In this document: piece after piece, positions 3,952-32,151 of the stretch | Layout: every line of letters begins with the position of its first letter | Position numbering within the stretch: position 1 is the first letter of the stretch | Assembly: GCA_963796105.1 (NCBI GenBank) | Contig: CAWCKJ010000007.1 | Coordinates: 32,001-96,000 of the forward strand | DNA length: 64,000 nt | Direction of reading: 5' to 3' | DNA from: a candidate division FCPU426 bacterium | GTDB taxonomy: Bacteria > Oederibacteriota > Muellerivitia > Muellerivitales > Muellerivitaceae | Made by a program: the position numbers and the translations under genes | Notes under the pieces: model-generated | Seen by the model: only the letters and a program-made list of their open reading frames with translations | Databases searched by the model: none | What the model was told of the DNA's origin: nothing

Positions 3952-3982
3952 CCGGTTGATCCCCAATGAATCTTCTGCCTGG

Positions 3983-6253: not shown

Positions 6254-8827
6254 TCATTGGGCGACCACCAATTCCGCCGAAAAAGCGGGAACAAGGATTT
6301 TAAGTTCCGTCCCTGAAATACTTTGAGGGCCCGAATCCACTAACCGTTTTCCGGAACTCTCGGAGATGGTGTAGGTGTTGTATGAAGTGACGGAGTCTGG
6401 AAGGGCAATGGTGGTATTGATGGACGTATCATGATTCTTGTTGACCAAAACCACGAAAGTCTTGGTGGCGTCTTTGGCGCCGAAGGAATAAAGGTCCGGC
6501 GAGGAACTGGTGGCGCCCACGGTATTCCCATCCACCTTGGACCCCTTGCCGTCGTAGTTTCCGAAAAGACGGTGGGCGAGAAACAGGAAATTGTCCGGTT
6601 GTGCCCCACTCCAATCGCAGGCAATGTCCACCCCTTCCCGCATGAAGATGCCGAGTTTGACGGTTTCCAGCAGGCCCCCATGGTATTGGTGCTGAGCGGC
6701 GGGATAGTATTCGGTTATGGAATACTTGGTACCGGGATAATTCTCCGCGATGATCTTTTTCATCTTGGGGATCATCCCCACGAAGGGGTCCCACAGGTAA
6801 GGTTTGTTGCCCGGGTTCGCGCACCAGCTGTAGGGATCCTCGAGGGTCGGGTCCCACCAAACCCTCAGGGCCTCGAACTGCTTGGGCGTGACCACTGGAT
6901 CGTAGGGATAGTCCCCCGACATGCTGATCGTGCTGCCTTTGCCGTCGGTATCCCAAACATCGGGGCAGCCGTGGTTGTCCAGGAAGTCGATGAGCCGAAT
7001 GCCCGCCTTGTCCGAGAGCTTCTTCATTTGTCTCAGGTAATAAACCACCTGCGGAAGATCCCCGTGGGCCTTGCGGTCGGTCCACATTTCATGGCCCTTT
7101 TTCGCGCTGTCATCCAACTCAAATTCCTTGACGCCACCGGGCATGTAGTCCCAGTTCGAGCCGGCCAGTTCCATGACCCCCCAGCCGCTCCAGCCGATCA
7201 CTTGGGCGCTCGGGTCCGCCTCTTTCACGGCGTGGGCGTACTTGGTGTTCAGGTCCACGAGATCGTCGTAGCCGACGCCCTTGGGCCAAACGTCGCGGTG
7301 GTTGGCTACCCAACATCCAGGCTCATTGTCCATCTGGTAGAACTTCACCCCACCCTGGGAGGCCGGCCCGAAGAGCTTCACGATTGTTTGGACCCATTCC
7401 TTCTGGTATTCCGGGGTGGAAGGCACGTAGTTGAAGTGGGGGTCGTTGTCCATGATGTGCTTGTCCCCGGGCAATATGCCGTTGCCCGCGCCCTGCCCGT
7501 CGGTGGCCGTTTGGTTGGGATATTTGGAAGTCGGGAAGGAACAAAGTCTCGGCCCGTCTTTGTTTGTCGGTTTGGCCACCCAGCCGGTGGTGGGTATGGT
7601 GATGATGGCCTGGCAGCCGGCCGAAAAAGCCTCTGCGATGAACTTGGCGTAACCCTTGTCCTTTTCCTGGCCGCTCGCCGGAGGGCCGCCTGAGTTCAGG
7701 AAAAACCAGTCACCACCCCGGTTATCCGAGTCCTCTTTCCAGTTGTAGTTGGAGGTGGCGTTCCCTCCCCAGCGATTCAAGGTACCGCCCAATTGTTTCA
7801 GCTTTTCCCTGTCCTGGTAGTTGTAGCCCCAGAGGTAGGGCGAGATGGGATGGCCAAGCTCGGCTGCGAGAGAAACCGAGGCGGACTTGATCGAAACCGG
7901 GGCGACAGTCACGGTTACCGACTCGTAGGATGAAGTCTGTTTCTCGTTTTGCGCGGCCACGCCCACGACGTGCGGGCCCGCGCCCGGCAGTAAGGCGGAC
8001 TCGAGCTTCACCTGCCGTTTGTCAGCTCCTTTCACCTGGCCGGTCGCCTTCCCGTCGATGGTCACCAGGTATCGCTGGATGCCCTCGTCGCTGGCCTTGT
8101 CCCACATGAGCATTACCCCGCCTGGCGCCCGATACCACCCGAGGTTTTCCACCGGCGTGACCAGCGCGGTGTCGGTCACGTAAATTTTGTCGAAATGCAT
8201 GTAAACGGGCTTGTTCTCGGGGTAATCCCCTGACAAGTTGAGATTAAGAGTTTTCATCTTGTCCTTGGTCATTTTGGAATAATTCGGGAAGGAAGCAAAG
8301 GGAATGACCACCCGCGTCCATGTTTCGCCGATTTTCTTGCCATCGGCGTAGTTGCTAAGTTTGACCGAGCCGGAATCAACATCGCCGGTAAGCGCCGCCT
8401 CGAAATCCGCACCCGGAAAATTGGTCTTGGCGTAAAGCACGAGGTTTTTGGCCTGGGAAAAATCCTGGTTTGACCAGGAATTGTTGAAGGCAACACCGCC
8501 ACCTGCCCACTTCTTATCCCAATGCTTGTTGTCGCCGTCGGTAACCCAAGTGAACTCAAAGGAAAGGCAGTTGTCGTTGTTGGCCTCGCTGTCGAAAATG
8601 ACCCAATTCGAATAACCGCTTTGGATCTTGGATTCCATCTTCTCCTTGCAGGGGTCGGGCCGCAAAAGAAATTTGTGTTGGTCGCCCAAACAAACGATGC
8701 TTACGCCCCCTTTCCCGTCCTTGCCCGAAGAGTCGGCCCAGCAAGGGCCGTAAAAGGTGATGTCCTCGTCGCTCCAGGCGGCTGTGGATATGCATGCAAG
8801 AAAAATAATAAAAGAGATCTTTCGCAT
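6254..8827 (-). CDS. Secreted GH44 endoglucanase/xyloglucanase with N-terminal CBM-like and Fn3-like domains
   Basis: Motifs ISPYLWGYN, RWGGNATSNYNW, MDNEP (acid/base), HRDV, YPGTKYSITEY (nucleophile) and NYDGKGS. Signal peptide present. Confidence 0.88.
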   Translation of the reverse strand: MRKISFIIFLACISTAAWSDEDITFYGPCWADSSGKDGKGGVSIVCLGDQHKFLLRPDPCKEKMESKIQSGYSNWVIFDSEANNDNCLSFEFTWVTDGDNKHWDKKWAGGGVAFNNSWSNQDFSQAKNLVLYAKTNFPGADFEAALTGDVDSGSVKLSNYADGKKIGETWTRVVIPFASFPNYSKMTKDKMKTLNLNLSGDYPENKPVYMHFDKIYVTDTALVTPVENLGWYRAPGGVMLMWDKASDEGIQRYLVTIDGKATGQVKGADKRQVKLESALLPGAGPHVVGVAAQNEKQTSSYESVTVTVAPVSIKSASVSLAAELGHPISPYLWGYNYQDREKLKQLGGTLNRWGGNATSNYNWKEDSDNRGGDWFFLNSGGPPASGQEKDKGYAKFIAEAFSAGCQAIITIPTTGWVAKPTNKDGPRLCSFPTSKYPNQTATDGQGAGNGILPGDKHIMDNDPHFNYVPSTPEYQKEWVQTIVKLFGPASQGGVKFYQMDNEPGCWVANHRDVWPKGVGYDDLVDLNTKYAHAVKEADPSAQVIGWSGWGVMELAGSNWDYMPGGVKEFELDDSAKKGHEMWTDRKAHGDLPQVVYYLRQMKKLSDKAGIRLIDFLDNHGCPDVWDTDGKGSTISMSGDYPYDPVVTPKQFEALRVWWDPTLEDPYSWCANPGNKPYLWDPFVGMIPKMKKIIAENYPGTKYSITEYYPAAQHQYHGGLLETVKLGIFMREGVDIACDWSGAQPDNFLFLAHRLFGNYDGKGSKVDGNTVGATSSSPDLYSFGAKDATKTFVVLVNKNHDTSINTTIALPDSVTSYNTYTISESSGKRLVDSGPQSISGTELKILVPAFSAELVVAQ

Positions 8828-9407: not shown

Positions 9408-11231
9408 TTACAAGCTTTCTTTTTCCCGGTAAATTTGCGGAGATAACCCGGTTGCCCGCTTGAAAGCCTGGATGAAATAACTAGAAGAGTTGAACCCGCT
9501 TTCCTGGGCCACACGCTCGACAGAAAGAGGACTAGTCCGCAAAAGGCGCTTGGCCTCCTCCAAGCGCAGGCCCTGGAGGTATTTTGAAAAACCCAGCCCC
9601 GTCGTCCTGCGGAATCCCTTCAAAAAGGTGGGCACGCAAAGACCTGTTTGTTCCACCAAATCCTTCAATTTAACTTCCTTGGTGAAATTCCGGTCCATGA
9701 ATTGCTTTACTTCCTCCATGCGCGCCAGGCGCCTTCCCTCGGAGGGACGGTCCCCGACTTTCCCGATTTTCTCCAGACCCTCGCGGAACAGTGTGAGCAT
9801 CTCTTGGATGGTGGGAGCCTTGAGCAGACGTTCTTCCAGCGAATCGGCCAGCACGTCCAATTCCTGTTCCGAAACAAAACAGCTGCGAAGGGAATCCGTC
9901 ATGATGAAGAAGGCCTCCAGCAGGCAGAGCCGAAGGCTTTCGTTCTGCTCGTTGGAGTAAATGAGCGCCTGGCGAATGAATTCCGCCCGGGCCGCCTCCC
10001 GTTCCTGATGCGAACCTCCTCGGTAGGCCTTTCGAAGCCAGGCTAGCGCCGGGCGGAGGCCCTGGCCCTGCCGAATCGGAACTTTTTCCGCGTAATCCTC
10101 GTAAAAAATCAAGGAGCGCCCCATCGAGGAGCAAAGGTTCATGGCCATCACTGCCTGCAGACGAGATTCCACAAGCTTGACCCCGGGCGCCAGGGTGGAG
10201 CCGATGCCAACCAGAAGTTCCATGCCGGTCTTTTTCTCCAGGCGGCGGCAAATGGCCTCCACGCGATCGCGGATTTCCAACTTGGCCTGCACCTTGGTCT
10301 TCGAGGGCGACGCCGAGGTCACGAACAGCACGCCGTAATCCTCCAGTTTGCCTGCGACGGTCTCGGGAAATTCCCGGGCCACGCTTAAGGCTTCCCATTG
10401 AAGCCGGTTCGCGCAAACCATGGATTTCAATGTGGACCATTGCTCCAGAGCCGGAGCATGGTGGGTGACCGCCAGTACGGTCGTGGGGTAGCGTGTGATT
10501 CCCAGTTCCTCTTTTTCCCATTTGTGCGAGACTTCACCAACGCTCACCCTCGGATGGAACTTATCCAGTCCCAGCATGAAGTCCATCCAAATGAAATGCG
10601 GCAGGTTGTGGGAAATACAGCCTTTTCGCAACTCTTCCAGCCGTTCCGCCATTTGTTCATCCGCCCGGCCGCACAAGTAGTCCGCGAGGATTTCTAGAAG
10701 CTCTTGGCTTCCTTCCAAGGCGGGGGGAGTCAGCACAACGGTATCAAGCGCCATGCGGGCGTAATCCAGGAAATCCGGGTCCGGAGCATCAGCGCGCCGG
10801 CCGGAAAGGGAGGTCCATTGCGTGCAAATCTCGGTTTCCGTGAAGAATTTCTTCACAAAGGACCCGGTTGCCAGGAAGCCGTGAAAGGTGTCATCGGTGA
10901 CCACCGGGATAAAAATTTCGTTGAACCCGCGGTGTTTCCCTATTTGGGTTCTTCTTTCCTTCTTCAGCCGAGAGAAATACAGGTTGTTGAACTGCTCTCG
11001 GTCCTCGGTCTTCCCGAAAAGAGATTCAAAGTGAGTGGGATTATGTAGGAAATTGTGGCTGTAGAAAAGGGGTCTCCATTCGGAATAATTCCCGGCCGGG
11101 ACAAAGAAACAGTTCAGGTTCAAGTAAGTAGCGAAGAGATTGTAGATACGCATGTAGATAGTGAAATAAAGGTCTCGATTGACGCTGGGAGGAAGGAAAA
11201 TCGGTTTGGAATTCCGGCCGGTAGAGCTCAC
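9408..11231 (-). CDS. AraC-family transcriptional regulator with N-terminal PocR-like sensor domain
   Basis: C-terminal double HTH (LRLEEAKRLLRTSPLSVERVAQESGFNSSSYFIQAFKRATGLSP). N-terminal HRGFNEIFIPVV...GFLATG segment is PocR-like. Confidence 0.85.
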   Translation of the reverse strand: MSSTGRNSKPIFLPPSVNRDLYFTIYMRIYNLFATYLNLNCFFVPAGNYSEWRPLFYSHNFLHNPTHFESLFGKTEDREQFNNLYFSRLKKERRTQIGKHRGFNEIFIPVVTDDTFHGFLATGSFVKKFFTETEICTQWTSLSGRRADAPDPDFLDYARMALDTVVLTPPALEGSQELLEILADYLCGRADEQMAERLEELRKGCISHNLPHFIWMDFMLGLDKFHPRVSVGEVSHKWEKEELGITRYPTTVLAVTHHAPALEQWSTLKSMVCANRLQWEALSVAREFPETVAGKLEDYGVLFVTSASPSKTKVQAKLEIRDRVEAICRRLEKKTGMELLVGIGSTLAPGVKLVESRLQAVMAMNLCSSMGRSLIFYEDYAEKVPIRQGQGLRPALAWLRKAYRGGSHQEREAARAEFIRQALIYSNEQNESLRLCLLEAFFIMTDSLRSCFVSEQELDVLADSLEERLLKAPTIQEMLTLFREGLEKIGKVGDRPSEGRRLARMEEVKQFMDRNFTKEVKLKDLVEQTGLCVPTFLKGFRRTTGLGFSKYLQGLRLEEAKRLLRTSPLSVERVAQESGFNSSSYFIQAFKRATGLSPQIYREKESL

Positions 11232-11546
11232 ATCACCCCCGGCGCAGGCAGCAGGTTATCGTTGTTGGATTGGAAATTCCAATAGCTGGCTAATCCGACC
11301 TGCTGCAGAAAATCAGTCAAAACAAGCGGGCGGAACAGTTTTTTAACCCAAATTTCCATTCAACTTGCTCCCCAAGTTTTTACATGACTTAAAAAATTTG
11401 TAATAAAACCTTCGCGATATTAAAAGCAATTCAACAAAATCCATGCCAATTCGCCATTAATTTATATTGTTGCCATGTTCCCCTTCACAACACCGGATGC
11501 TTCTTTCGAATAAAATTCATCGTATAGGAAAAATAAAGCTTAAAAC

Positions 11547-11589
11547 CCGTTTAATAAATATTAACACAAAATTTGTTTTTTATAAATTA
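11547..11589 (+). promoter_or_regulatory. Candidate shared operator/promoter motif, copy 2 (upstream of the lipoprotein/OMP arm)
   Basis: Matches the reverse complement of 9364..9406 and lies ~100 bp upstream of ATG 11692. Confidence 0.45.
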
Positions 11590-11691
11590 TTTCATCTGTC
11601 CTTTGAGTATTATCATTGAAGTTTCGATTTTCTTCGCACAGGACCATATTTGGTTGTTCCCAAAAAGAATGATTCACTAGGAGGATGGCAA

Positions 11692-12624
11692 ATGAAGCAA
11701 TCACCTTGGATGGTCCTAGTCTTGTTTTTAATCTTGCAGTCGGTCTGGATTTCCTTTGAGGGTTGCCACAATGGGGCTTCCCCGACCATTCCTCCCATTC
11801 TTACATCCACACCCACCAAAACCCTGACTCCAACCCCCACGTTTACGTTGACCCTGACCATTACCAGCTCACACACAAACACTCCGACCGCCACTCCCAC
11901 TCCCACAACCACTAATACCAACACCCCATGGCCGACAAATGTTCCTACTTTGACTTTTACCATTACATCTACTGATACCGATACTCCAACCATTACCGAA
12001 ACCCCGACCAAAACCAACACACAGATCTATACACCGACAGTTGCCTTAACAAGCACTCCCACCAACACGTTCACTTCAGTCGCACCTGCAAACTGCACCT
12101 CCACCTCCACGCCCGCCCTCATCGATGATTTTGAGGCCAACACAAGTTCCAACACGTCCATCCTCCAGGATCAATGTCGCACAGGTTATTATTTCTGGTA
12201 CGGAAGTCCGAGTCCGAGCGTCGTTGTTGCCTCACCCGGAACAGGATTCGCTTGTACGAGTGGAACCAGCGCCAATGCCCTTCACTATACCAGTGGACCG
12301 GTGACTGGTTATGGATCCGTTTTCGCTATTGCTTCCATTTCAGGAGGAGAACCTTATGACATCAGCAGTTTCACGGGGATTCATTTCTGTGGAATGTTGG
12401 GAAGCACAATCTCAGCCATCGGGCCGGGTACCCTGGAAATTGATGATGCGAGTGGCGGCAATTGTAAGTCCACGATTCCCACTTTTACAACTTCTTGGCA
12501 ACAGATCCAAATTGCCTTTCCACTCACCGGCGCAAACCTTCACCAGGTTACGACAATACTCTGGACCGATGGAACGACCACTTCTCCAGTGGACTATTGG
12601 TTAGATAACATTTCTTTCTATTAA
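11692..12624 (+). CDS. Putative lipoprotein with long Thr/Pro-rich linker and C-terminal CBM11-like domain
   Basis: GGAGG RBS before ATG 11692. Hydrophobic leader ending FEGC, ~100-aa TPT-repeat stalk, then LIDDFE...YDISSFTGIHF...WQQIQIAF...DYWLDNISFY jelly-roll pattern. Confidence 0.7.
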   Translation: MKQSPWMVLVLFLILQSVWISFEGCHNGASPTIPPILTSTPTKTLTPTPTFTLTLTITSSHTNTPTATPTPTTTNTNTPWPTNVPTLTFTITSTDTDTPTITETPTKTNTQIYTPTVALTSTPTNTFTSVAPANCTSTSTPALIDDFEANTSSNTSILQDQCRTGYYFWYGSPSPSVVVASPGTGFACTSGTSANALHYTSGPVTGYGSVFAIASISGGEPYDISSFTGIHFCGMLGSTISAIGPGTLEIDDASGGNCKSTIPTFTTSWQQIQIAFPLTGANLHQVTTILWTDGTTTSPVDYWLDNISFY

Positions 12625-12806
12625 TAAAGTCTGATGCTTCATCGTGTATACCCAATGACGCGCCTCCAGTTGTTGAACCACCGATAAAGTCACTCTATAA
12701 ACTCAGTTAGTTGAGGTCGTCATAGGCTTGAAGTTGCTGTTGGGCCCCATGTGGACACTTTTCGTACCGATGTTTTGCCGAACCGACCATTTAAATTAAG
12801 GTGGTT

Positions 12807-13580
12807 ATGAACCAGAGAAAATATCATATCCTCTTTCCCGTTTTTTTCGCGCTAGGGTTGTTTGCCGGTTGCGGGGCGGTGCTGGTTAATAAAGGCTCAA
12901 AGGACGAACCCCTTTCAGCCGGGTTGAAAAACCCCGAAACCACCCTGCCCAAGATCATCGTGCCGGCCGAGCAAAAGCTCATCGGGAATTTCGAGGACGG
13001 CACGATCCACATGAACCCCAAACTTTACGGAACCAACGGCGCGGGCCTATGGAGCGTCAACATCTACGGCGGAAGCACCATCAACGAGGTGTTCGTGGTT
13101 CCCGGCGGGGCCAACGGCACCAAGATGGCCGCCCATATTTTCGGCAAATTGGTGAACAAGGGGGACGGAACCTATCCTTCCTTTCTCCTGGACGGCAAGT
13201 TCAAACCCAACGGTTACTACGACGCCAGCCCCTTCAACGGAATCCGTTTCTATTACAAGGCGACCTCCATCGACCAGGCCCCTTCCAGGCGCTTTACCAT
13301 CCCCATCGCACCCACTATGCCCTCCACTGCGGGAGGAACCTGCACCGGCAACTGTTACAACAATTTCGGCTGGGACCTTTCTTCCAAGGGGGATTGGACC
13401 CTCATCACCCTTCCATTCAGCAACCTCACCCGGCAGTCGGGATGGGGAAATCCCATCACGCCGCCTGAGTTCACCGAGCACTCGAATGAGATACTGGGCA
13501 TAGAGTGGTCCCATAACGCGGGCAACACCGCGGGAACTTATAACATCGATTACTGGGTGGATGAGGTCGAGTTTTTTTAA
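12807..13580 (+). CDS. Lipoprotein with CBM11-like carbohydrate-binding domain
   Basis: Lipobox LFAGC. Motifs LIGNFEDG, YDASPFNGIRFYYK, WTLITLPFSNLTRQSGWG and IDYWVDEVEFF. Confidence 0.72.
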   Translation: MNQRKYHILFPVFFALGLFAGCGAVLVNKGSKDEPLSAGLKNPETTLPKIIVPAEQKLIGNFEDGTIHMNPKLYGTNGAGLWSVNIYGGSTINEVFVVPGGANGTKMAAHIFGKLVNKGDGTYPSFLLDGKFKPNGYYDASPFNGIRFYYKATSIDQAPSRRFTIPIAPTMPSTAGGTCTGNCYNNFGWDLSSKGDWTLITLPFSNLTRQSGWGNPITPPEFTEHSNEILGIEWSHNAGNTAGTYNIDYWVDEVEFF

Positions 13581-13652: not shown

Positions 13653-16487
13653 TTGATTCTTAGATTCAAGACAACATTCAAGGGCTTCCTTTTCTTAGCC
13701 CTTCTATATATAGGCCCTCTGGCTGCAGGCCTTTGGGCGAATCCTTCGTATAATGTGACTTCCGACGAACCCCTTTACCAGCGCGTGAAGGCGTTGGAAG
13801 CCTTCGGCCTTTTGGATCCCCAAGACCAGGCAGTCCTCGACCAGGGCCGGGTGGTGACGAAACTGGAGTTGGATTTCTTCACGGAAAAGGCCAAGACCAA
13901 CTACCAGGCTTCCCAAGGGTTGCAGGTCGCCCTGGCGTCCCAGGCCGCGTCCACTTCCTCCTCTAAAACTACTCCGGCTCCAACGGCGGTAATGGCGACA
14001 ACACCGGCCACGGATCCGAATTTTGTGCAAGGTTTCTCTCTTTACCAGCAAAAGCATTACGCCCAAGCCGTTCCCAAATTCCAGGCTGTCATCCAGCAAA
14101 ACCCGAATAACGCGATGGCCTACTATTACTTGGGTTATTGCCAGGTCATGGCGGGGAACACAAAGGAAGGCGCGGTGGCTTTGACCCTGTTCCTTCAGAA
14201 ACAACCCAATCCTTCCATCCAGGATTACCTCACACGAGTGAAGGCCAAGCTGATGCCAGCGGACCAGCAATGGGTTGACGCGCAAACGGCCGCCACATCG
14301 AATCCAACTCAACCCGCCAACGCCGATCTCGAGCGGGAAATCAACGCACTCCTCAAGATCCTCGATGAGGAATCGGATTATCTCAAGACGAGAATGGCCT
14401 TGGACGATTATCGTTTGAAAGAACAGGAAAAGGAACTGGAGGCCCTCCAATCGACGCAGGATGACGTCAACTCGGTCTTCCGGAAGTCCAACAAGTCCTC
14501 CGGCTCCCCCCATTTCACCTATACGGCGGACAACCGGACGGAAAACCTTCACCTGTCGGGCATTACCGTGGTGGGCGCTACCCATAGCTATTACGAGTTC
14601 ACCTTGGGAGTCTGGAGCGACTTGGGAGGGGAAGGCGCATTTACCATGAATATCAACGGAAGCATCCCGGATTGGAACTCTTCCTCGGCCCCGGTCTCCT
14701 TTTCCGTAAATTCCTCGTCCTTGAATTTCAATGTGGACGGAATGCTGGGACACTGGAACAACACTGTGGCGGTGGAAGCCTACTCCTTCGACACGGATTT
14801 GGGGGATTTCACCAGGAGCGCTGGCACGAATTCCCTGCGTTTCGAGGACCCCTTCGACATCAAGAGGTATTCGGGCGACAAGAACCAAAAATGCTGGGAC
14901 GATTACATGACAAACCTGGGGTTCGTCCCCAGTACGGCCTCCTGGACCAATCAGAACCAGAGTATGGAGGTTTTCGACGGCCTCTACATGGTTGGAACCA
15001 AATTGCCCCTGGTCAGTAAGGACGCGAAACTGAACCTGCTCGTCGGCCGGACGGACGGTGATCCCCACCGATGGGAAGAAGGGCTCAGGTACAGCCAGCC
15101 CTGGGCCAACGGCTTGTTGCAGACTTCCCTGTCAACCGAGTGGGTGAACGAGGACGAACTGAACGCCTCGGCAACCCAGGCGAATATGGACATGAAATCC
15201 TGCGCGGGGTACTTCGGTTTAGACTTTAAGCCCGTGGTTTTGGGTTTTGAGCTTGGATACAGCCATTTATATACCGGCATATATAATTCCAGCGTTACGA
15301 GTTACGCCCCTAACGACAACATTAAACCCCTCACCTATGACGCCCCTGCCGGCCAGGCCTCCTTGAACCTTTACCCCTTGACGTTTTATTACACGGCCAT
15401 CAGCGATGAATTCTCGAATTTCCAAAGCAAGGTTGTCCTCGGAGGAATCCAGTTCTGGAAGTTCGGTTTTCCCGGCCAGCCCGTAATGGACAACAATTTC
15501 GGGTATGTGGGCCTACCGGGTGACCTTGTCAGCGACCGATACGGCTGGCGGGTCAACCTGGGATGGAAGGGGCGCCAGGAAAGCTGGACCAAGTCCCTGC
15601 CAAGTTTCCTGGATGACATAATCATCAACTTGGACGTTGCCCAGAGAACCGAGTACCAATCCATGCAGGACGAATTGGGCTATTACCCCGTGGAGGCCTA
15701 CAGCCTCATCTCGGTTTTTTATCCGGAGGACAACGGCATATTCGGAACCATGTGGTCAAACTGGGGGACGACGCATTTTGCCGGCCAAGAGTATGTAAAT
15801 AATATTGAAAGCATCCGCGGCGACGGGAATACCATCGCGCCCTACATCATCAGCTTTGGCCCCCCCGTTTCTGAGCGGGTTCCCATGATACTTCCTTATG
15901 ATGTTTCGGGCGCTAATCCGATCGTGTTTTCCTACCCTGAGACCATCAATGGTGTTCCTGTAACAGTTGGCAGCCAGCCTGCCACGGTCACCAAGACCTT
16001 CACTTCCTTGGATCACATTAAGACGTTCAATTACGTTACCCTGACCTTGAAACCTCAGATCAACAAATGGTTAAACCTGAATACGCCTTTTTACGCCGGC
16101 CTCTTCTTCACCGACAACCGGGTGTCCGGAACCACCGACAACCCTTCCTTGAAAAACGTCCCCGACCCCAACCGGCCAGGCCAAACCCTGGGGTACATTC
16201 CTAACCTGTTCGAACAAACCGTTTACGACGCAGCCTTTTTATATGGGGTTTTCAACCACGTCAACCTCCTTGCGGATTACGGGCTAGAGCTGTGGAAATC
16301 CAACTATACATATCCCAGGGTTGATTACCGGACGGATTCCGTGGGAACCGGGTTCGCTTACGACATCCCTTGGGGCGGATGTAAATGGGAATTTCGCTAT
16401 AAACATATCAATTTCCGGGACCTTTATGTCTCGGCCAACAGCTACCAAGCGGACCAGATTTATTCCTTTTTCCTCTTCCAGTTTTAA
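13653..16487 (+). CDS. Outer-membrane protein A: SLH-like + TPR + coiled coil + predicted beta-barrel
   Basis: Signal peptide; EPLYQRVKALEAFGLL...VTKLEL (SLH-like); TPR (AVPKFQAVIQQNPNNAMAYYYLG); coiled coil; aromatic beta-rich body ending in FQF. Confidence 0.6.
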   Translation: MILRFKTTFKGFLFLALLYIGPLAAGLWANPSYNVTSDEPLYQRVKALEAFGLLDPQDQAVLDQGRVVTKLELDFFTEKAKTNYQASQGLQVALASQAASTSSSKTTPAPTAVMATTPATDPNFVQGFSLYQQKHYAQAVPKFQAVIQQNPNNAMAYYYLGYCQVMAGNTKEGAVALTLFLQKQPNPSIQDYLTRVKAKLMPADQQWVDAQTAATSNPTQPANADLEREINALLKILDEESDYLKTRMALDDYRLKEQEKELEALQSTQDDVNSVFRKSNKSSGSPHFTYTADNRTENLHLSGITVVGATHSYYEFTLGVWSDLGGEGAFTMNINGSIPDWNSSSAPVSFSVNSSSLNFNVDGMLGHWNNTVAVEAYSFDTDLGDFTRSAGTNSLRFEDPFDIKRYSGDKNQKCWDDYMTNLGFVPSTASWTNQNQSMEVFDGLYMVGTKLPLVSKDAKLNLLVGRTDGDPHRWEEGLRYSQPWANGLLQTSLSTEWVNEDELNASATQANMDMKSCAGYFGLDFKPVVLGFELGYSHLYTGIYNSSVTSYAPNDNIKPLTYDAPAGQASLNLYPLTFYYTAISDEFSNFQSKVVLGGIQFWKFGFPGQPVMDNNFGYVGLPGDLVSDRYGWRVNLGWKGRQESWTKSLPSFLDDIIINLDVAQRTEYQSMQDELGYYPVEAYSLISVFYPEDNGIFGTMWSNWGTTHFAGQEYVNNIESIRGDGNTIAPYIISFGPPVSERVPMILPYDVSGANPIVFSYPETINGVPVTVGSQPATVTKTFTSLDHIKTFNYVTLTLKPQINKWLNLNTPFYAGLFFTDNRVSGTTDNPSLKNVPDPNRPGQTLGYIPNLFEQTVYDAAFLYGVFNHVNLLADYGLELWKSNYTYPRVDYRTDSVGTGFAYDIPWGGCKWEFRYKHINFRDLYVSANSYQADQIYSFFLFQF

Positions 16488-16540
16488 AGTGGAAACGCCG
16501 GGCTAGGGAGGCCCGGAAAAATTCAAGGGAAAGAAGAAAC

Positions 16541-18733
16541 GTGAAAAAAATATCCATCAATTTAATTGTAACCGCCTTTTTCACCGGATTGGCCTTTAAC
16601 GCTTGGGCCGGCCATGGGGTCTTGACCTCCACGGAACGGGATCCCTGGGTGAACCAGACCGTCCAGGATTTGGTGGACGCAGGTTTGGTTGTCCAACCCC
16701 AGAAACCCGTGGGCCAGTTGACCAACTTGGAAGTGGCCCAATTGACCCATTTAGCCGTCCAATCCTGGCTGTCCCAGGATCAGGAAGCCCTGACTTCCGC
16801 CGGAACCAGAAACCAGGGCCCCGAACCCGCGGTGAGCCGAAGCCTGCAGAAGCTGGCGGACGAGTTCCAGGATGAGCTAATAACCATGGGCCAGGACATG
16901 GCCCAACTTGAGGACAGGCTGTACGACTCCCAGCACCGAAACGAGATATTCAAAACCCTCCAGCAGGAATACCTGAAGCGAACTGGAACAAGCATGGCGG
17001 GATACGCCAGGGGTTATTTCAATACATACCGTGGTTCCGGGATCAACGCCCCTTACGGCCCGTGGGACAACAACGATATTCTGCTGGGAGACCTCATCCT
17101 GAAGAGCATCCCGGTTCCATTCCTTTTATTCAACACGGACTTGCGTGTAACCCGAACCAACGGCTTGATATACGCGGATCCGATCAATCCAACGTTCAAC
17201 CTGCGCTGGATTTCCCTCACCTACGCCAACGAGTTGGCCAATTTTACTGCCGGCGACTTTTTCCGGAGTTACACCCCCTTGACTCTCTGGAACTATGAAA
17301 TCCCGGTTTATACCCTGATCGAACCCACTTCCTATCAAAGGGTCCGCAATGACATCGAGGGAATGATATTTATGGACCATGGGCCAAATTGGCACATGCG
17401 GGGTTTTGAGGGGACCTCGGACAGGGCCGTTACCAACAGCGATGTGTTCAGTTCCTTTCACTTGCAGGCCATGGGCGGAATCTTAACGCCGGAATCACAA
17501 TATCTTTACGCTAATGATTACGCCGGAAGCGAAGCGGCCTTGGACTTGTTCGGGGACAAGCTGGAATTCAAAGGCGCCGGTTACCTTCTTTGGGTGGATA
17601 CCAACAGCGTCAATTACATTTCGGGACTAACGCCGAACGGGGAGCAATACCAGGTGGGTAGCCTCTCGGCAAAGGGAACCCTGCCCCTGGGAAAATCCGT
17701 CACGCTGTCAGCCAACGGCGAATACGCCTCTAGCTACTACCAGGATGACGCCAACCAAAACCAGAATAACCTCAAGGATTGGGCAGTCCTAGCTGGCGGT
17801 TCCTTGGATTTCGAGGGTGCCCTATTAAGCGTTAAATACTTAAGCAACGGACCTAATTTTTATTCACCCGGGGCACAAACCAACCGCTTCAGCCCCGTTC
17901 CAAGTACCGCCGGTTATTTGAACGGGAACCAAAAGCTGGATGACGGCCTTTCAGGCTACCTGGATAATTACGTCTTCCAAGGTGTCGGCCAACCTGTGTT
18001 CGCCCCCTTTGACCGTATGGCGGAGAATATCCTTCCATACGGCGACTCCACCCCAAACCGGGAGGGCCTAATCCTGGGGTTGAAAGCTGATCTTGGAAAG
18101 GGAGGATGGCTCAAGCCCCAAGCGTCCATGGCGGTCAACATGCACGAAGTGCAGCCGGATATTCTGACCGTGGTTGAACATTACTACATTCCCGCGGATA
18201 GCCAGATCAATACGATAGCCGCGAGGAAATTCGGAGGATATGAGGGGGCTCTGGTCGTGGATTTGGGCAAGGTTCTCGAAGGGGCGCCTAAAACCTGTGC
18301 CTTATCCGGCGATTACAAGCACCAGAGTGTTGACCTGGGAACAGGAGCAAACCCATTTACGTTGGACAGTTATATCGCCAGCGCGGATATCGGCCCATTC
18401 CCCCACGTACCCCTTTTTGAAGGACTGGTTCTTTCTGCGTCTTTTGAACAGGCAAAATCCAGCGGAAGCGAATTCGTTCTGAGTGAACCCGCCACAATAC
18501 TCCCGACCCTGGCGGAATACGCTTCTTACTATGACACGTCCTTGATCGGAAGTTACATTTACCAGCCGCTGGATTTCACCCGCACATCCTGGGCTTTCGG
18601 CTTCAAATGTAATTTAAGCCGAACCTTTGAATTGCACGGGGATTGGTTCATCAACAAATACACCTGGTCCGATGTCCCGGGCTATGACCGGCGTGAACAG
18701 ATTTGGAGGTTATCCACAGATGTTTCTTTCTAA
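16541..18733 (+). CDS. Outer-membrane protein B: SLH-like + coiled coil + predicted beta-barrel (OmpM-like)
   Basis: DPWVNQTVQDLVDAGLV...LTNLEVAQL; SLQKLADEFQDELITMGQDMAQLE resembles the OmpM stalk; C-terminal Phe. Confidence 0.65.
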   Translation: MKKISINLIVTAFFTGLAFNAWAGHGVLTSTERDPWVNQTVQDLVDAGLVVQPQKPVGQLTNLEVAQLTHLAVQSWLSQDQEALTSAGTRNQGPEPAVSRSLQKLADEFQDELITMGQDMAQLEDRLYDSQHRNEIFKTLQQEYLKRTGTSMAGYARGYFNTYRGSGINAPYGPWDNNDILLGDLILKSIPVPFLLFNTDLRVTRTNGLIYADPINPTFNLRWISLTYANELANFTAGDFFRSYTPLTLWNYEIPVYTLIEPTSYQRVRNDIEGMIFMDHGPNWHMRGFEGTSDRAVTNSDVFSSFHLQAMGGILTPESQYLYANDYAGSEAALDLFGDKLEFKGAGYLLWVDTNSVNYISGLTPNGEQYQVGSLSAKGTLPLGKSVTLSANGEYASSYYQDDANQNQNNLKDWAVLAGGSLDFEGALLSVKYLSNGPNFYSPGAQTNRFSPVPSTAGYLNGNQKLDDGLSGYLDNYVFQGVGQPVFAPFDRMAENILPYGDSTPNREGLILGLKADLGKGGWLKPQASMAVNMHEVQPDILTVVEHYYIPADSQINTIAARKFGGYEGALVVDLGKVLEGAPKTCALSGDYKHQSVDLGTGANPFTLDSYIASADIGPFPHVPLFEGLVLSASFEQAKSSGSEFVLSEPATILPTLAEYASYYDTSLIGSYIYQPLDFTRTSWAFGFKCNLSRTFELHGDWFINKYTWSDVPGYDRREQIWRLSTDVSF

Positions 18734-21086
18734 GAGCCAATACCTCCAGAAATTATTCATGACCGCCCTGATGGCCTCGGCGTTTTGCGGGACTTCTTGG
18801 TGTTTTTCTTCCGGCGATCCTTTCACGATCGTGCCAGCGGGGGACCCCACTTATTCGGAATTAAAACAACTGGCCCGGGCTGGATGGTTGTCGGAAAAAG
18901 ACGTTTCGTGGGCTTCCCTGACCCGGTATGACGTGGCCAAACTCATCCTGAAAGCGCAAAGGAATTCCAATGAAATAACCTTGGCCCAAGCGAACATCAC
19001 CACGCCCACCCCATCCAGTCAGGTGGGCACGCTCGAACCGTTACAGGAAACAGGAACCGCCCCGGTCACCGCTGCCGGGCCTGCAAAACAATCCGCCGCC
19101 GAAATGGCCGTGGTCCGGGCCCAGGCCGCCAAATCCCTCCACAGCCTCCAGGAAGCCTACCAATACGAACTCAAGTCTCTTAAAGAAAAGTTAAAAACCC
19201 TCCAGGCAGAAGCCACCGAATTGGAGGCCCAGCAATACAACCTCAGAAAGAAGTTGATGGGCTTCAACCAGAACCCTTCCATTTCAATACACGGCCTGGG
19301 ACTGGCTTACGGGTATTCCCAACAATTCATTGGGAATTATCCGGTTTATATCAATGGAAATCCCGGTACCCGGACAACCCTGGGATACTTGGACTTGGAA
19401 CCGATGGGAACCATCTCCAAGGAAGTCAGTTGGGACACGATCCTGAGGCTGCAATCCTCACTGATACCCAACGACACGCCTGTATTTAACCTGCGCCGGA
19501 TCTCCCTGGATTTCAACCCGCCCTGGCTCTCGGCTACTTTGGGCGATTTCGACGAGTCTTACACCCCCTTCACGATATGGAACAGAAACAGTCTTGACCT
19601 GGCCTATGCTCCGGAAATGTGGAGCCGCTGGGACAACCGGGTCAAATACGAGAACTTCTTCAACGACGAGCCTAACTGGCCGTTTCGGGGATTGAGGGTG
19701 GGTGAGTCGGTGATGTGGCCTGATTCCGGCGCCCTGGATTCCCTGAAGGCCTCGGCCTTTATCCACATGATCCGCAACGGGTACAATTACAACAGCGGCT
19801 CTTATTTCGGCTCCAACCAGTACACCGACTGGATTTTCGCGGGGACTGCGGGGTTGAAATCCAGGAAGTGGTACTTGGGCGGGACCTCCCTGCAGTTGGG
19901 CCTGGATTCCTACGGCATCATCCTGGATGAACCCCTTGATACGGAACAACCTGGTTCCCCCTACGACCCGGAGAATCCCGCGACTTGGGCGCACCAATAC
20001 TTGATCGGCAGCCTTAAACCCGACATCAAGGTCGGGTTAGGGGACGATTGTTATGTCGGGGGAACTGGCGAGTACTCCTATTCCAATTACCAGGACGACA
20101 AGCGGAACCCTGGCCGGGTGATCGGGGATTACGCGGTGATGGCTGGCCCTTACGTCAAGTTCGGTCATTCCACGCTTAGCGTGAATTACCTTAACGTCGG
20201 CCCCTACTATTATTCCCCCTTGGCACAGACCCGGCAGGACGGCGTCTCCTTAGTCAATGGACTCACGGCACCCTCCATGACCTCGCCCGACCTCTTCCAC
20301 CCCATGTTGAACTACCAGAATGTCTTGCCGGATGTGCCACGCCCCGGAGACATCTTCGGCTTTTACGACCGCACCCAGGATAATACCTTCCCCTACGGTA
20401 TGGCCACCCCCAACCGGGAAGGATTCGGCCTGGAAACCGACCTGAAATTGCTTTGGAAGGAAACCCTATGGATCAAGGGTTCCGCCTACCGGGTCAAGGA
20501 AATATTCAGCAATATGGTCATCAACAACGCACAAACGGGATATATTCCCGTGGACCTTCCTTTCAACACTGCCTTGATTCCCATCCGGAATTTCACTTAT
20601 GTCAACGCGGGCCCTTCATTTAATTTGGGGCCCTCTTTGGGCTGGGACCGGGACTTGGAAATTGGCTCAAATATTCGTTACGAGCAAACCACCAGCGACC
20701 TGGGGACCTTGACCAGTTCCTGGATCATCGGGGGGTTGCGGGTCGACCTTTTGCCGGTTTGGGAAATCGCCGCCGCCATCAGCCAGCAGAATTCGAAGGG
20801 AACCGACGCAGGCTATCAATACATGGATAATGACGGAGTGTTTCACCAAACACTTTGGGCCCATTATTCCTACGTGTATGACAACAAAGACCTTGGGCAT
20901 TACGCGCCTTTCACCGTCGACGGCAACATCATGAGCCTGAGGTTTTCCAGCATTATCAAGGTCAACCGCAATTCCAACATCTACTTGGATTACGATTGGA
21001 CAAAGGGGAACCTGATGCCTGGGAACCCCGCCCAAGGCACCGTCAATAATCAATTCATGGAGTTGAGTTATGAAATCCAATTTTAA
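18720..21086 (+). CDS. Outer-membrane protein C: SLH-like + coiled coil + predicted beta-barrel (OmpM-like)
   Basis: GGAGGT RBS before ATG 18720, overlapping the stop of the upstream gene. FTIVPAGDPTYSELKQLARAGWL...LTRYDVAKLILKA (SLH-like); coiled coil; ends YEIQF. Confidence 0.65.
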   Translation: MFLSKSQYLQKLFMTALMASAFCGTSWCFSSGDPFTIVPAGDPTYSELKQLARAGWLSEKDVSWASLTRYDVAKLILKAQRNSNEITLAQANITTPTPSSQVGTLEPLQETGTAPVTAAGPAKQSAAEMAVVRAQAAKSLHSLQEAYQYELKSLKEKLKTLQAEATELEAQQYNLRKKLMGFNQNPSISIHGLGLAYGYSQQFIGNYPVYINGNPGTRTTLGYLDLEPMGTISKEVSWDTILRLQSSLIPNDTPVFNLRRISLDFNPPWLSATLGDFDESYTPFTIWNRNSLDLAYAPEMWSRWDNRVKYENFFNDEPNWPFRGLRVGESVMWPDSGALDSLKASAFIHMIRNGYNYNSGSYFGSNQYTDWIFAGTAGLKSRKWYLGGTSLQLGLDSYGIILDEPLDTEQPGSPYDPENPATWAHQYLIGSLKPDIKVGLGDDCYVGGTGEYSYSNYQDDKRNPGRVIGDYAVMAGPYVKFGHSTLSVNYLNVGPYYYSPLAQTRQDGVSLVNGLTAPSMTSPDLFHPMLNYQNVLPDVPRPGDIFGFYDRTQDNTFPYGMATPNREGFGLETDLKLLWKETLWIKGSAYRVKEIFSNMVINNAQTGYIPVDLPFNTALIPIRNFTYVNAGPSFNLGPSLGWDRDLEIGSNIRYEQTTSDLGTLTSSWIIGGLRVDLLPVWEIAAAISQQNSKGTDAGYQYMDNDGVFHQTLWAHYSYVYDNKDLGHYAPFTVDGNIMSLRFSSIIKVNRNSNIYLDYDWTKGNLMPGNPAQGTVNNQFMELSYEIQF

Positions 21087-21150
21087 TAATGTTCCGGTGA
21101 GAGAGGATCTCCAGCCTCGGCCGATGCAGGAGAAGAAAGAAAGGCCTGTC

Positions 21151-21870
21151 ATGAAAAACTCGCTATTCACGGCTATCGGCTTGGTCCTTTTGGGGCTATT
21201 GACCTTGCTTGAACCGGGTTGCACAACCAAATTCCCTTCCATCACCACCATGTCACCATTGTCTTCCTCTAATTGTTACCCTTATATTTTGCAAACTTTT
21301 AATAGTTCTTCGGATTTAAGTAATATTAGTAATGGCGGGCAAACATTCGGAACAGGACCCGTCACTGGCGTTAATTCAGGAGTCACAGTCGTTTATTCCC
21401 TTTCGCCCCTATATGCCACTCAGGGAAATATGTCCTTGGATGTCGATATCCTATCGGCCCCGATGACGAACGGCACGGTCGAAAATTGGGACGACAAAAT
21501 ATTCTTTTATAACACTAAAAACATACCGGGAATGAGCTGGAACGATTATTCCATGTTAATCGCGGATGTCTACATCGATGCCTCGGTAATCCAAGGGGCG
21601 GGATACCAACAACTCCAACTTTGGGCCGACTCATCAGCAACCAATAATTACTACCAACCCATCTGCCTCCCAAAGAACCAGCCCAACATCACCGCAGGGC
21701 AACAAGCCCTCACCTGGGTCATCGATTTTACAGCAGGTAAAATTACTCCTGGTTCACAACTCAGTGACATATATTTCATTCTCAACGCAAATACGACTAA
21801 TGGTACGGGAAATATCTACATTGACGATATGCGGTTGGCTTATAAGGTCTGTCCGACTCCCACACAATAA
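21151..21870 (+). CDS. Putative lipoprotein with CBM-like (galactose-binding fold) domain
   Basis: MKNSLF leader with LEPGC lipobox; WNDYSMLIADVYID...GNIYIDDMRL pattern. Confidence 0.6.
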   Translation: MKNSLFTAIGLVLLGLLTLLEPGCTTKFPSITTMSPLSSSNCYPYILQTFNSSSDLSNISNGGQTFGTGPVTGVNSGVTVVYSLSPLYATQGNMSLDVDILSAPMTNGTVENWDDKIFFYNTKNIPGMSWNDYSMLIADVYIDASVIQGAGYQQLQLWADSSATNNYYQPICLPKNQPNITAGQQALTWVIDFTAGKITPGSQLSDIYFILNANTTNGTGNIYIDDMRLAYKVCPTPTQ

Positions 21871-22008: not shown

Positions 22009-24789
22009 TTGAAAAATCACGCGTTTACCCGGTTTTTGCTGGTTTCCGTTATCCTTTTGCCGCTGAAAGTAATTGGCCACGAAGGGGTTGGGCGTGAACG
22101 CATCCTTATGGATGCGGAGTGGCGATTCCGTTTGGGAACCATCAGCGGATCGGAGATTAATAACGGCATTGTGATCACTAACTGGCGTTATCAGGGGCCC
22201 TGGAAAACAAAACCCGCCGATATTGAGAAATCCCTGGGCGCTACGGGAGTGAAAACCTCCGGATCAGATTGGAAGGATGCCGTCAACGGAAAGGACCTTT
22301 TCGACAACAAACCTGGATTCGCCTTGTGCCGGGCGGTTATGCCCGATTTCCCGGGCCCCCACCGGGTGCTTCATTTCGCGGGAGTGGACGACAACTGTAC
22401 CGTTTACGTTAACGGAAAAAAAATGATTTACCACGAGGGGTGGAACGACTCCTTCGACATTGACCTGGACCCGGTCTGGAAGGAAGGCGGCTCCAATGAG
22501 GCGGCGGTCCTGGTCGAAAACATCTGGGGAGGAGGAAACATTAAAGAAGCCGATCTGTTATCCCCCGACAGGGTTGAAAAAATTCCGGATGCGGCCATGC
22601 CGGGTTACTACACTAAGGGATGGAAAAAAATCCATATCCCCCACGATTTCGTGGTGGAAGGCACCTTCGATTTCAATGCCGACGGCAGCCACGGGTTCCT
22701 TCCCAAGAACGCGGCTTGGTATCAAAAGACCTTCGACCTTCCGATTTCGGATAAGGGGAAGGCCTTGTGGATTGACTTCGACGGCATTTACCGGGACAGC
22801 CGTGTTTGGCTGAACGGCAAGTTGTTGGGCCGCCATTTGAGCGGTTACACGGGTTTCCGCTACGACATCACGCAAGCCGCCAACTACGGAGGAAAGAACG
22901 TTTTAACCGTGTACGTGGATGCGCGCGATTCCGAGGGCTGGTGGTATGAGGGAGGCGGCATCTACCGCCACGTTTGGATTAACAAGGCCTACCCCTTGCA
23001 TGTGGAACCTTGGGGCGTATGCGTGGTTTCCGCTACCAACCGGGAATCCAACCCTACCCAAGCCGCCGTCCGGATCGAAACTTCCATGATCAATGCGGCT
23101 GGAGTGAAAAAGGCTTTCCGCCTTGTTTCCCAGGTAAAGGATGCCCATGGCAAGATCGTCGGCAAGCTATCGGGGACCAAGATTTTGGGGGCCGGTTCTA
23201 AAACCGTTCTTTCCCAAAAGATCTCCTTGGCCCGGCCCCACCTTTGGTCGTTGGAAGACCCATATCTTTATACCCTCGAGACAAATGTCATGGTGGGGTC
23301 CAATGTGGTGGACAGCGTTACGACCCCCTTTGGCATTCGTACCATCCGCTTTGACATAGGGAGGGGGTTTTTCCTGAACGGCCGGCCCGTCAAGATTAAG
23401 GGAACCTGCAATCACCAGGATTTCGCGGGGATCGGAATCGCCATTTCTGACCGTATTTTTGCTTACCGGTTGGACCGCCTGAAAGATATGGGCTCCAACG
23501 CCTACCGATGCTCGCACAATCCCCCGGCGGCCGAATTGCTCGACGAGTGCGACCGGAAGGGCGTGTTGGTGATGGATGAGAACCGCAAGCTGGGCGACAC
23601 GCCGGAAATTCTCGACCAAGTGCGCAGCATGGTCCTGAGGGACCGGAACCACCCCAGCGTCATCCTTTGGTCCCTGTGCAACGAGGAAGCCCTGCAGGGC
23701 TCGCCCACAGGGCAAGCTAGGGGAGAAGCCATGAAAAAAATGATCCTAGGTCTGGATAAGACCCGTCTCATTACCTGTGCCATGAACGGGGGATTCGGCT
23801 CCGGGCTCTCCAACGTGGTGGACCTCCAAGGCTTCAACTACCATCCTAAGGAATACGAACCCTATCACCAAAACCACCCCAAAATACCGATTTTCGGCAG
23901 CGAGACTGGCAGTACGGTTTCCACAAGGGGTATCTACGCGGACGCCAAGGATAAGGGCTACGTGAGCGCCTACGACGTCAATCCCCCCGGGTGGGCCAAC
24001 ACGGCGGAAGAGACGTGGCAAGCCATCGACCGTCCCTACATGGCGGGCTGCTTTGTCTGGACGGGTTTCGACTATAGGGGCGAACCCACGCCTTACTGGT
24101 GGCCTTGCATCAATTCCCATTTTGGGTTGATGGATATATGCGGTTTCCCCAAGGATAACTTTTATTACTACCAATCCGTTTGGACCGGCAAACCCATGGT
24201 GCATCTCCTTCCGCATTGGACTTGGAAGGGAAAAGAAGGCCGCGAAATCGCGGTTTGGGCCTACAGCAACTGCGATCAGGTGGAACTGTTCCTGAATGGC
24301 AAAAGCCTGGGTGTAAAGGACAACCCAAAAGACGGGCATATGGAGTGGAAAGTGAAGTACGAACCCGGCACACTTTCCGCCAAGGGCAGCAAGGATGGAA
24401 TGGTGGCGGCGGAAGACAAAGTGGAAACCGCCGGTGCGCCCGCCAAAATCCGTTTGACGCCGTACCAAACGGGGCTTTTGGCGGATGGCGAAGATGAAAT
24501 GCCCGTCAAGGTGGAAATACTCGACTCGGAGAACCGTATCGTGCCCACGGCGGGAAACGAGGTGACTTTCCGGGTGACTGGACCTGGGCTGGTGGCGGGT
24601 GTGGCCAACGGCGACCCCTCCAGCCATGAGCGGGACAAGGTGGGGGAAGGGCCCGCGCATCGCAAGGCGTTCAACGGACTTTGCATGGCCGTAGTCGGAT
24701 CCACCAACGAGGCTGGCCCTGTCACCCTTACCGCCACTTCGGCCGGATTGGAGCCGGCTACGGTGGTTTTAATTTCCACGGTTCCTTGA
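22009..24789 (+). CDS. Secreted GH2 beta-galactosidase
   Basis: TTG start after GGAGG. Motifs WWYEGGGIYRHVW, FGIRTIRFD, KGTCNHQD, YRCSHNPP, RDRNHPSVILWSLCNEE, FGSETG and WTGFDYRGEP. Confidence 0.93.
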   Translation: MKNHAFTRFLLVSVILLPLKVIGHEGVGRERILMDAEWRFRLGTISGSEINNGIVITNWRYQGPWKTKPADIEKSLGATGVKTSGSDWKDAVNGKDLFDNKPGFALCRAVMPDFPGPHRVLHFAGVDDNCTVYVNGKKMIYHEGWNDSFDIDLDPVWKEGGSNEAAVLVENIWGGGNIKEADLLSPDRVEKIPDAAMPGYYTKGWKKIHIPHDFVVEGTFDFNADGSHGFLPKNAAWYQKTFDLPISDKGKALWIDFDGIYRDSRVWLNGKLLGRHLSGYTGFRYDITQAANYGGKNVLTVYVDARDSEGWWYEGGGIYRHVWINKAYPLHVEPWGVCVVSATNRESNPTQAAVRIETSMINAAGVKKAFRLVSQVKDAHGKIVGKLSGTKILGAGSKTVLSQKISLARPHLWSLEDPYLYTLETNVMVGSNVVDSVTTPFGIRTIRFDIGRGFFLNGRPVKIKGTCNHQDFAGIGIAISDRIFAYRLDRLKDMGSNAYRCSHNPPAAELLDECDRKGVLVMDENRKLGDTPEILDQVRSMVLRDRNHPSVILWSLCNEEALQGSPTGQARGEAMKKMILGLDKTRLITCAMNGGFGSGLSNVVDLQGFNYHPKEYEPYHQNHPKIPIFGSETGSTVSTRGIYADAKDKGYVSAYDVNPPGWANTAEETWQAIDRPYMAGCFVWTGFDYRGEPTPYWWPCINSHFGLMDICGFPKDNFYYYQSVWTGKPMVHLLPHWTWKGKEGREIAVWAYSNCDQVELFLNGKSLGVKDNPKDGHMEWKVKYEPGTLSAKGSKDGMVAAEDKVETAGAPAKIRLTPYQTGLLADGEDEMPVKVEILDSENRIVPTAGNEVTFRVTGPGLVAGVANGDPSSHERDKVGEGPAHRKAFNGLCMAVVGSTNEAGPVTLTATSAGLEPATVVLISTVP

Positions 24790-31851: not shown

Positions 31852-32151
31852 TCAGCGGCCCTTTTTGGAATCCTTACTGTCGGCCTGGTCCGAGACAATA
31901 TTTTGATCCGAGACGTTTTCCTGCTCTTGGGGAGTTTTGTTATCAACCTTTATTTTAAAATTTTGTTTCCTCTTTTTTCTCTTCTTGGGTTTGGCCCTAT
32001 GGTTGTAATGATGAGTGACTTCGGGCTTCTCGGCGGGTTTGAGAAGGTTCGAATCATCAGATTGCGCCAGGGCTTTGGGAGCCAAACCAAACCTGAGAAT
32101 TCCAATAGCCAAAATAGCGAGTAAATGTCTTAGGTATCTATTGTATTTCAT
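31852..32151 (-). CDS. Small basic secreted hypothetical protein
   Basis: Signal peptide ending ALA; Lys-rich; 4-bp overlap with the upstream omptin gene. Confidence 0.55.
   Translation of the reverse strand: MKYNRYLRHLLAILAIGILRFGLAPKALAQSDDSNLLKPAEKPEVTHHYNHRAKPKKRKKRKQNFKIKVDNKTPQEQENVSDQNIVSDQADSKDSKKGR

Follow-up and report, generated by a model that had tools for sequence, protein, structure and literature searches.

The closest described systems are a cellulose-utilization cluster of Cytophaga and several families of large outer-membrane barrels. In Cytophaga hutchinsonii the cluster of chu_1276-chu_1280, described as an 'atypical' polysaccharide utilization locus, is induced by cellulose; cellulose use is reported to require chu_1276, chu_1277 and chu_1279 and not to involve SusC/SusD, and the cluster is reported from three Cytophagaceae species only, that is, in two besides C. 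hutchinsonii (PMC12016534). OmpM1 of Veillonella parvula (8BYS, 8BYM and 8BZ2), a homotrimeric general porin and tether, has one S-layer homology (SLH) head, a coiled-coil stalk and a C-terminal barrel of 16 strands, whose constriction is formed by the infolded loops 3 and 7 (PMC10628300). The plan of SLH head, stalk and large barrel recurs in SlpA of Deinococcus/Thermus and in cyanobacterial SomB-type porins; SlpA is a homotrimer with 28-30 strands per barrel, and the part of the source consulted reports no tie to glycan loci (PMC9388160). SusC/SusD utilisomes combine a 22-strand barrel with surface lipoproteins, and their genes cluster with glycosidases and a regulator. Here we describe a locus within a window of 64,000 nucleotides from a candidate division FCPU426 bacterium (assembly GCA_963796105.1, contig CAWCKJ010000007.1, positions 32,001 to 96,000), in which three tandem genes (A, B and C; 13653..21086) encode predicted stalked outer-membrane barrels. 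The architecture of the three proteins (profile matches and two structural models), their homology to CHU_1276 and CHU_1277, a fixed gene order and the neighboring glycosidases suggest that the trio and its flanking lipoproteins probably form a wall-tethered channel that admits plant-glycan fragments independently of TonB.

The three genes are adjacent and on the forward strand, as given in a preliminary description of the window made from the sequence alone: A at 13653..16487 (944 aa), B at 16541..18733 (730 aa) and C at 18720..21086 (788 aa). Only the start of C was corrected. Its open reading frame (ORF) extends from 18627 (819 aa); the likely translation start is the ATG at 18720, which has a GGAGG 10 nt upstream and from which C overlaps the stop of B by 14 nt. 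Lipoprotein D (12801..13580, forward strand; lipobox LFAG-C), a predicted beta-sandwich resembling a carbohydrate-binding module (CBM), lies immediately 5' of A. Lipoprotein E (21070..21870, forward strand), also with a lipobox and of the same broad family as D, follows C; its first in-frame ATG overlaps the stop of C and its true start is probably near 21154. Neither D nor E had a Pfam match; in the ESM Atlas the features of D were 0.91-0.93 similar to SGBP-B, CBM30 and CBM11 clusters, a likeness shared by E, which serves as a lead. The flanking lipoproteins, and a tetratricopeptide repeat (TPR) insert in A, had been missed by the preliminary description. Judged from the BamA and LpxC genes of the genome (4.98 Mb, 96.8% complete), the host is a diderm.

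No Pfam or NCBIfam family was found for any of the barrels, the sole Pfam domain in A, B and C being the TPR insert of A. A single-sequence Pfam scan of the three proteins gave no SLH (PF00395) match, and the stalk of C matched NF033921 (por_somb) weakly (E 6e-4, far under the cut-off). Family profiles (C, 103 sequences; A, 71; B, 47) were then searched against 177,635 PDB sequences, and OmpM1 (8BZ2/8BYS) was the top match of all three (A, E 1.1e-5; B, 1.6e-4; C, 2.2e-3). The matches run through the SLH head with its TRYE-type motif aligned, and the B profile also aligns the OmpM1 stalk. The heads of A (residues about 29-90), B (with a degenerate TNLE motif) and C (TRYD) thus appear to be divergent SLH domains beneath Pfam detection.

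AlphaFold models were examined for A (pLDDT 75) and C (pLDDT 85). In both, a pair of SLH helices (behind the signal peptide in A) leads through a disordered linker into one long helix (224-282 in A, 126-184 in C), after which comes a barrel (287-943 in A, 187-787 in C). A manual count from the DSSP lists gave 22 strands for each barrel. The models cover A and C only, and the barrel of B, with its 22 strands, was taken by homology to C (678 columns in the profile alignment, probability 100%; sequence identity 27%). Between A and C there was no BLASTP similarity, and hhalign aligned the SLH head only; the kinship of their barrels is drawn from the shared 22 strands and loop 3/loop 7 topology. 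In each model strand 5 and strand 13 are succeeded by a long loop. These two loops, numbers 3 and 7, hold 17 of the 43 invariant columns of C on 14% of the chain, and they may fold into the lumen of the barrels. The C-terminal residue was Phe in 43/44 A, 41/47 B and 43/44 C ORFs. The SLH-like segments, coiled coils and beta-rich bodies ending in Phe of the preliminary description were therefore recovered, and the motifs that it quoted are present in the ORFs. Its remark that SLH barrels are usually smaller and lie outside glycosidase loci needs amending, since large ones are known, SlpA among them (PMC9388160).

The likeness to OmpM1 covers the single SLH head, the coiled-coil stalk, the C-terminal barrel and the long loops 3 and 7, and at the level of sequence it was detectable in head and stalk, with no barrel match. 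The trio differs from OmpM1 in its larger predicted barrels, in being a fixed set of three paralogues within a single operon and in its partner lipoproteins. Three side observations concern the individual proteins. The TPR insert lies in the linker of A (about 125-190), shares 67% identity (about 125-200) with a stretch of another TPR protein (G000:C4:1134916-1136358) and is confined to a few copies of A; it has the appearance of a domain inserted recently. The A profile also matched PDB entries 10aw/10dn, titled '50 kDa outer membrane protein', along the stalk and the initial strands (E 1.4e-4), perhaps because this is another stalked porin and perhaps through coiled-coil bias. The barrel of B resembles DUF6029 proteins (with Myxococcota the commonest source) by language-model features (0.96), and these may extend the barrel family.

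In the models nothing lies between the stalk and strand 1, leaving no plug, and neither a PF00593 nor a plug domain match was found in A, B or C. In a structure search the barrels of A and C could be superposed over their full length on TonB receptors, with the receptors' barrel part alone taking part, for example residues 211-1016 of the SusC protein BT1763 (for A, Z 13.8 and rmsd 4.5 with 403 aligned; for C, Z 13.5 and rmsd 4.8 with 391 aligned). Z-scores of 12-14 tie TonB receptors with porins (maltoporin, OprP) and with OmpM1, and therefore fix a size class and name no single family; OmpM1 covered only part of the barrels (186-633 of C, 284-799 of A). The top Foldseek matches, to usher and other export pores and also to TonB receptors, reached TM-scores of only 0.2-0.35, read here as a resemblance common to barrels in general. 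That A, B and C are TonB-dependent transporters with an unrecognized plug or gate is suggested by the 22 strands typical of TonB receptors, by the UniRef label of CHU_1277 (TonB-dependent receptor), by the structural hits of CHU_1276 to such transporters (PMC12016534) and by the TonB systems of the genome. The barrel of CHU_1277 begins at residue 29, just past the signal peptide, and strand 1 of the present barrels comes straight after the coiled coil; with no plug, this explanation was rejected as very improbable. The trio shares with SusC/SusD utilisomes the 22-strand barrel, the surface lipoproteins and the company of glycosidase and regulator genes. It is unlike them in lacking a plug, a TonB receptor signature and SusD, and its uptake would be passive. 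The earlier proposal that it replaces a TonB-dependent SusC stands as far as no plug was found in the barrels and no SusD (PF07980) in the genome, and is tempered by nine TonB-dependent receptors that the genome still encodes, which by eye are not beside glycosidases.

The barrels themselves led to Cytophaga. The CHU_1277 family aligned with B over 515 columns, from residue 29 of CHU_1277 (P 99.95%, E 1.5e-37), and BLASTP of B from the window against CHU_1277 gave 27% identity (E 2e-9), B being the nearest of the trio to that protein. The CHU_1276 family aligned with A directly (P 93.7%, E 1.9e-7) and, as a bridge, with the A-type protein of the two-gene loci described below (P 99.5%, E 3.6e-22). 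On these alignments A, B and C belong to the CHU_1276/CHU_1277 family, which makes the glycan link stronger than the preliminary description knew. A search with the B/C profile found 39 more loci, nearly all from Bacteroidota. In 38 of them the B/C-type barrel is stalkless, in 36 an A-type barrel lies directly upstream, and in 36 one or two putative CBM-like lipoproteins lie downstream; the Bacteroidota pairs occur near GH2-like, GH16, GH3, GH18 or sulfatase genes (GH, glycoside hydrolase family). At one of these loci (L165) the fourth gene (375 aa) has 7/7 of the residues published for CHU_1279, and database records name the proteins CHU_1276 to CHU_1279.

The C. hutchinsonii cluster resembles the present locus in its homologous barrels, in their order (A-type, then B/C-type), in the putatively CBM-like surface proteins and the glycosidase after the barrels, and in having no SusD and no room for a plug (PMC12016534). 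It differs in that CHU_1276 and CHU_1277 are a pair without SLH head or stalk, whereas all three barrels of the trio have a stalk and a further lipoprotein precedes them; D and E are likened to CHU_1278 and CHU_1279 by CBM-like character only. Among 1.84 billion sequences the B/C profile had 2,518 representatives at E≤0.001 and 308 at E≤1e-30, and the ESM Atlas independently linked the B barrel to Bacteroidota proteins of 570-595 aa (0.96). One Bacteroidota family had the barrel in 39/41 genomes, with up to 9 matches each. Five genomes at the level of Cytophagaceae (G099, G100, G123, G124 and G128) had 7-9 B/C-type matches, suggesting an expansion for different substrates.

The window genome has four copies of the module, in which A, B and C are preceded by lipoprotein D and followed by one or more lipoproteins; a contig scan with the single protein C gave no match. 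A-B-C was present in 44 of 52 loci of the same taxonomic order (43 read directly, plus L049, where B was masked by the ORF filter and seen in the profile search), and the remaining eight are cut by contig ends. A is visible in 47 loci, and in at least 37 of these D lies directly before it. The trio therefore stays together, and its barrels are never single where neighboring genes are visible. Copies other than the core copy, which is the commonest across the order, adjoin GH44, GH2, GH31, GH29, GH5 and GH36 genes, sugar-binding proteins and LacI or AraC regulators (representatives scanned). GH44 flanks a second copy in the window genome too; the copy on contig C3 has transposases and a CBM11 protein alongside, with no glycosidase in view. 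Barrel genes are split by stops or frameshifts in L054, L069, L074 and L078, through assembly errors or decay.

The phylum was surveyed with the broad B/C profile against 99 genomes, 69 of which matched; families f3, f4, f6, f7 and f9 gave no barrel match. The barrel and GH9 were both present in 58 genomes and both missing in 24; 11 had the barrel only and six GH9 only, related genomes not being independent. The core copy was present in 31/31 genomes of its family, four of these without GH9. All five genomes of family f3 (G001-G005) have GH9 and no match to the barrel profile, through another uptake route or because their homologues are too diverged. Trios were found in 0/28 loci of other families: in 24 a lone B/C-type gene comes immediately after one of A type, four are cut upstream, and the gene after the pair is a non-barrel in all 27 loci where it is visible. 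The first gene of the pair is homologous to A (715 columns, P 97%), the pairs of the phylum also have SLH-like heads and stalks (by eye), and these loci adjoin GH9, GH8, GH44, GH62, CBM9 and CBM11 genes. In family f12 (L082:9287-11563, L080:3-1967) the B/C-type protein apparently has a stalk and no SLH head, while its A partner keeps the head. A quick maximum-likelihood tree of 56 selected barrels (midpoint root) set the pair-type and Bacteroidota barrels apart from B (14) and C (14), which formed two monophyletic clades, sisters of each other (support 99). Given these clades and the pairs elsewhere, the trio most likely arose from a two-gene ancestor (A and a common B/C gene) by one duplication of the second gene.

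Since each chain has one SLH repeat, trimerization is implied (PMC9388160, PMC10628300), and from their sequences A, B and C likely grip the cell wall through heads and stalks. Whether the trimer is mixed was judged from several features. Besides the barrels never being single, the position of the SLH binding Arg is Asn in 49/49 B rows, Arg in 99/99 C rows and Arg or Lys in 94/94 A rows; stalk lengths are constant while linkers vary several-fold (14-222 residues); the reading frames of B and C overlap; and in a count of charges at the e and g positions BBB was the sole charge-repulsive stalk combination. One A, one B and one C would be the likeliest assembly, at a little short of an even chance. 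A broader proposal, held somewhat more tentatively, is that the trio is an obligate heterotrimeric porin of three different 22-strand barrels, with a hetero coiled coil and an asymmetric SLH head, that tethers the outer membrane and takes in glycan fragments from lids formed by the lipoproteins. It would then represent, with a stalk, an uptake family that spans phyla and does without SusC/SusD, and the cellulose machinery of Cytophaga would be the member of that family that has none.

Several findings weigh against the proposed channel or its three-part assembly. Pairs suffice in most other families of the phylum, so that three genes are not required for function. In the crude count of e/g charges AAA scored -7.7, AAC -6.5 and ABC -3.8, which does not single out ABC, and the stalk of A is about nine residues longer than those of B and C. 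Glycan uptake by separate homo-oligomers, or by a two-type complex of A with B and C as alternative partners, is possible, though less likely than not. It would accommodate these findings, the stalkless Bacteroidota pairs and the homotrimers solved for OmpM1 and SlpA (PMC10628300, PMC9388160), and is at odds with B and C being kept adjacent as separate clades in every complete copy, with the uniform loss of the SLH Arg in B and with the repulsion of BBB. As to the anchor, a CsaB-type pyruvyltransferase (PF04230) was not found in the 96.8% complete genome, and the classic SLH ligand may therefore be absent; the genome also has five OmpA-domain genes, which are other possible tethers.

The link to glycans meets objections of the same kind. 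Eleven genomes, as noted, have the barrel without GH9, and the core copy sits in a housekeeping setting, between an rlmD fusion (23/52 loci) and lepA (19/52); its neighbors are, judged from motifs, presumably lepA, hrcA, grpE and dnaK. No linked glycosidase accompanies the lepA-linked core copy, so that the glycan context expected from the preliminary description held for the non-core copies and not for this one; its other concern, homologues occurring singly outside glycan loci, applied in the setting of the core copy and not in singleness. The trio could mainly be the general porin and outer-membrane tether of its lineage, an equivalent of OmpM with glycan uptake as a secondary use of duplicated copies. 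The presence of the core copy in every genome of the family, including those without GH9, would fit, as would the lack of any other Pfam SLH protein in the genome and the double role of OmpM1 itself (PMC10628300). The core copy still has three CBM-like lipoproteins, the barrel was not found in five families, the homologues without a stalk in Bacteroidota are situated at glycan loci, and the homology of the barrels is to CHU_1276/CHU_1277 and not to OmpM; this explanation was considered unlikely. The ORF directly 5' of the core copy (1,240-1,540 aa; L006:38-4177, reverse strand; 23 loci, e.g. L047:14858-19132) fuses an RlmD 23S rRNA methyltransferase (residues 1-470) to about 900 residues for which neither a Pfam match nor a paralogue within the genome was found.

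The direct link between A and CHU_1276 is only moderate. Loss of CHU_1276/CHU_1277 lowers cell-associated beta-glucosidase activity (PMC5553014), and the presence of CHU_1279 is reported to matter more than its binding (PMC12016534). Together with the export pores among the top Foldseek matches, all with low TM-scores, these reports are compatible with barrels that serve as a surface scaffold or export route positioning cellulases and binding proteins, and not as an import channel. Growth on low glucose is poor in the chu_1276 mutant, CHU_1277 reportedly participates in the assimilation of cello-oligosaccharides (PMC12016534, PMC5553014), and the putative constriction loops hold conserved residues; a scaffold or export role is accordingly regarded as improbable.

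For the channel, the genes around the trio suggest the following scheme. Lipoproteins D and E would capture glycan at the surface, where a GH44 endoglucanase/xyloglucanase-family protein (6254..8827, reverse strand) would cut it. Oligosaccharides would cross by passive, substrate-biased diffusion through the barrels, whose lumen loops 3 and 7, long and conserved, would narrow, and a GH35 beta-galactosidase (607-3966, reverse strand), a GH29 alpha-fucosidase (3983-6133, reverse strand) and a GH2 glycoside hydrolase (22009..24789, forward strand, 3' of the module) would then trim the imported fragments, while the single SLH heads and stalks would trimerize and grip the wall. The substrate of this copy would be xyloglucan or beta-glucan; GH44, GH35 and GH29 together suggest xyloglucan. 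These glycosidases were assigned by Pfam, GH35 and GH29 each carrying a CBM35/CBM6 domain, and with the AraC-family gene they bear out the glycan locus of the preliminary description. The AraC-family protein (Pfam; 9408..11231, reverse strand), divergent from the module, is likely its local regulator. The forward-strand run opens with a Thr/Pro-rich putative lipoprotein (11692..12624) that has a C-terminal CBM-like domain and a paralogue with a weak Mann_GBD match; between it and the AraC gene, 11270-11650 is AT-rich and intergenic, likely a divergent promoter region. Elsewhere in the window an 832-aa PMT_2/PA14 membrane glycosyltransferase-like protein (37281-39779), a 362-aa ORF without family in a low-GC stretch (32148-33236) and a protein of 658 aa that matched TPR weakly (58745-60721) lie on the reverse strand. 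An Rfam search of the window gave no matches.

A search of the open-access literature found no paper that joins SLH-stalked barrels to CHU_1276/CHU_1277 or describes an A-B-C operon, and a search of full texts for SLH-bearing heterotrimeric porins found no such system, as judged by title and abstract. The CBM11 and GH9/GH44 content seen here is reminiscent of Goldbacteria/FCPU426, whose description, in the portion consulted, does not mention outer membrane, porin or TonB (PMC7031533). The OmpM plan and the Cytophaga cluster are thus each already known; what appears to be new is their combination and the fixed three-barrel form.

How Cytophaga imports the breakdown products of cellulose without SusC/SusD is a long-open question. 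The present comparison places CHU_1276 and CHU_1277 in a wider family and argues that they are plugless despite their TonB-receptor labels, and it describes a form that is fused to an OmpM tether in an uncultured, glycosidase-rich phylum. A genetically fixed heterotrimeric porin, if true, would be unusual, and an obligate A-B-C complex would imply that CHU_1276 and CHU_1277 together form a plugless heteromeric channel. Concrete tests are now possible in a cultured, genetically tractable host, Cytophaga.

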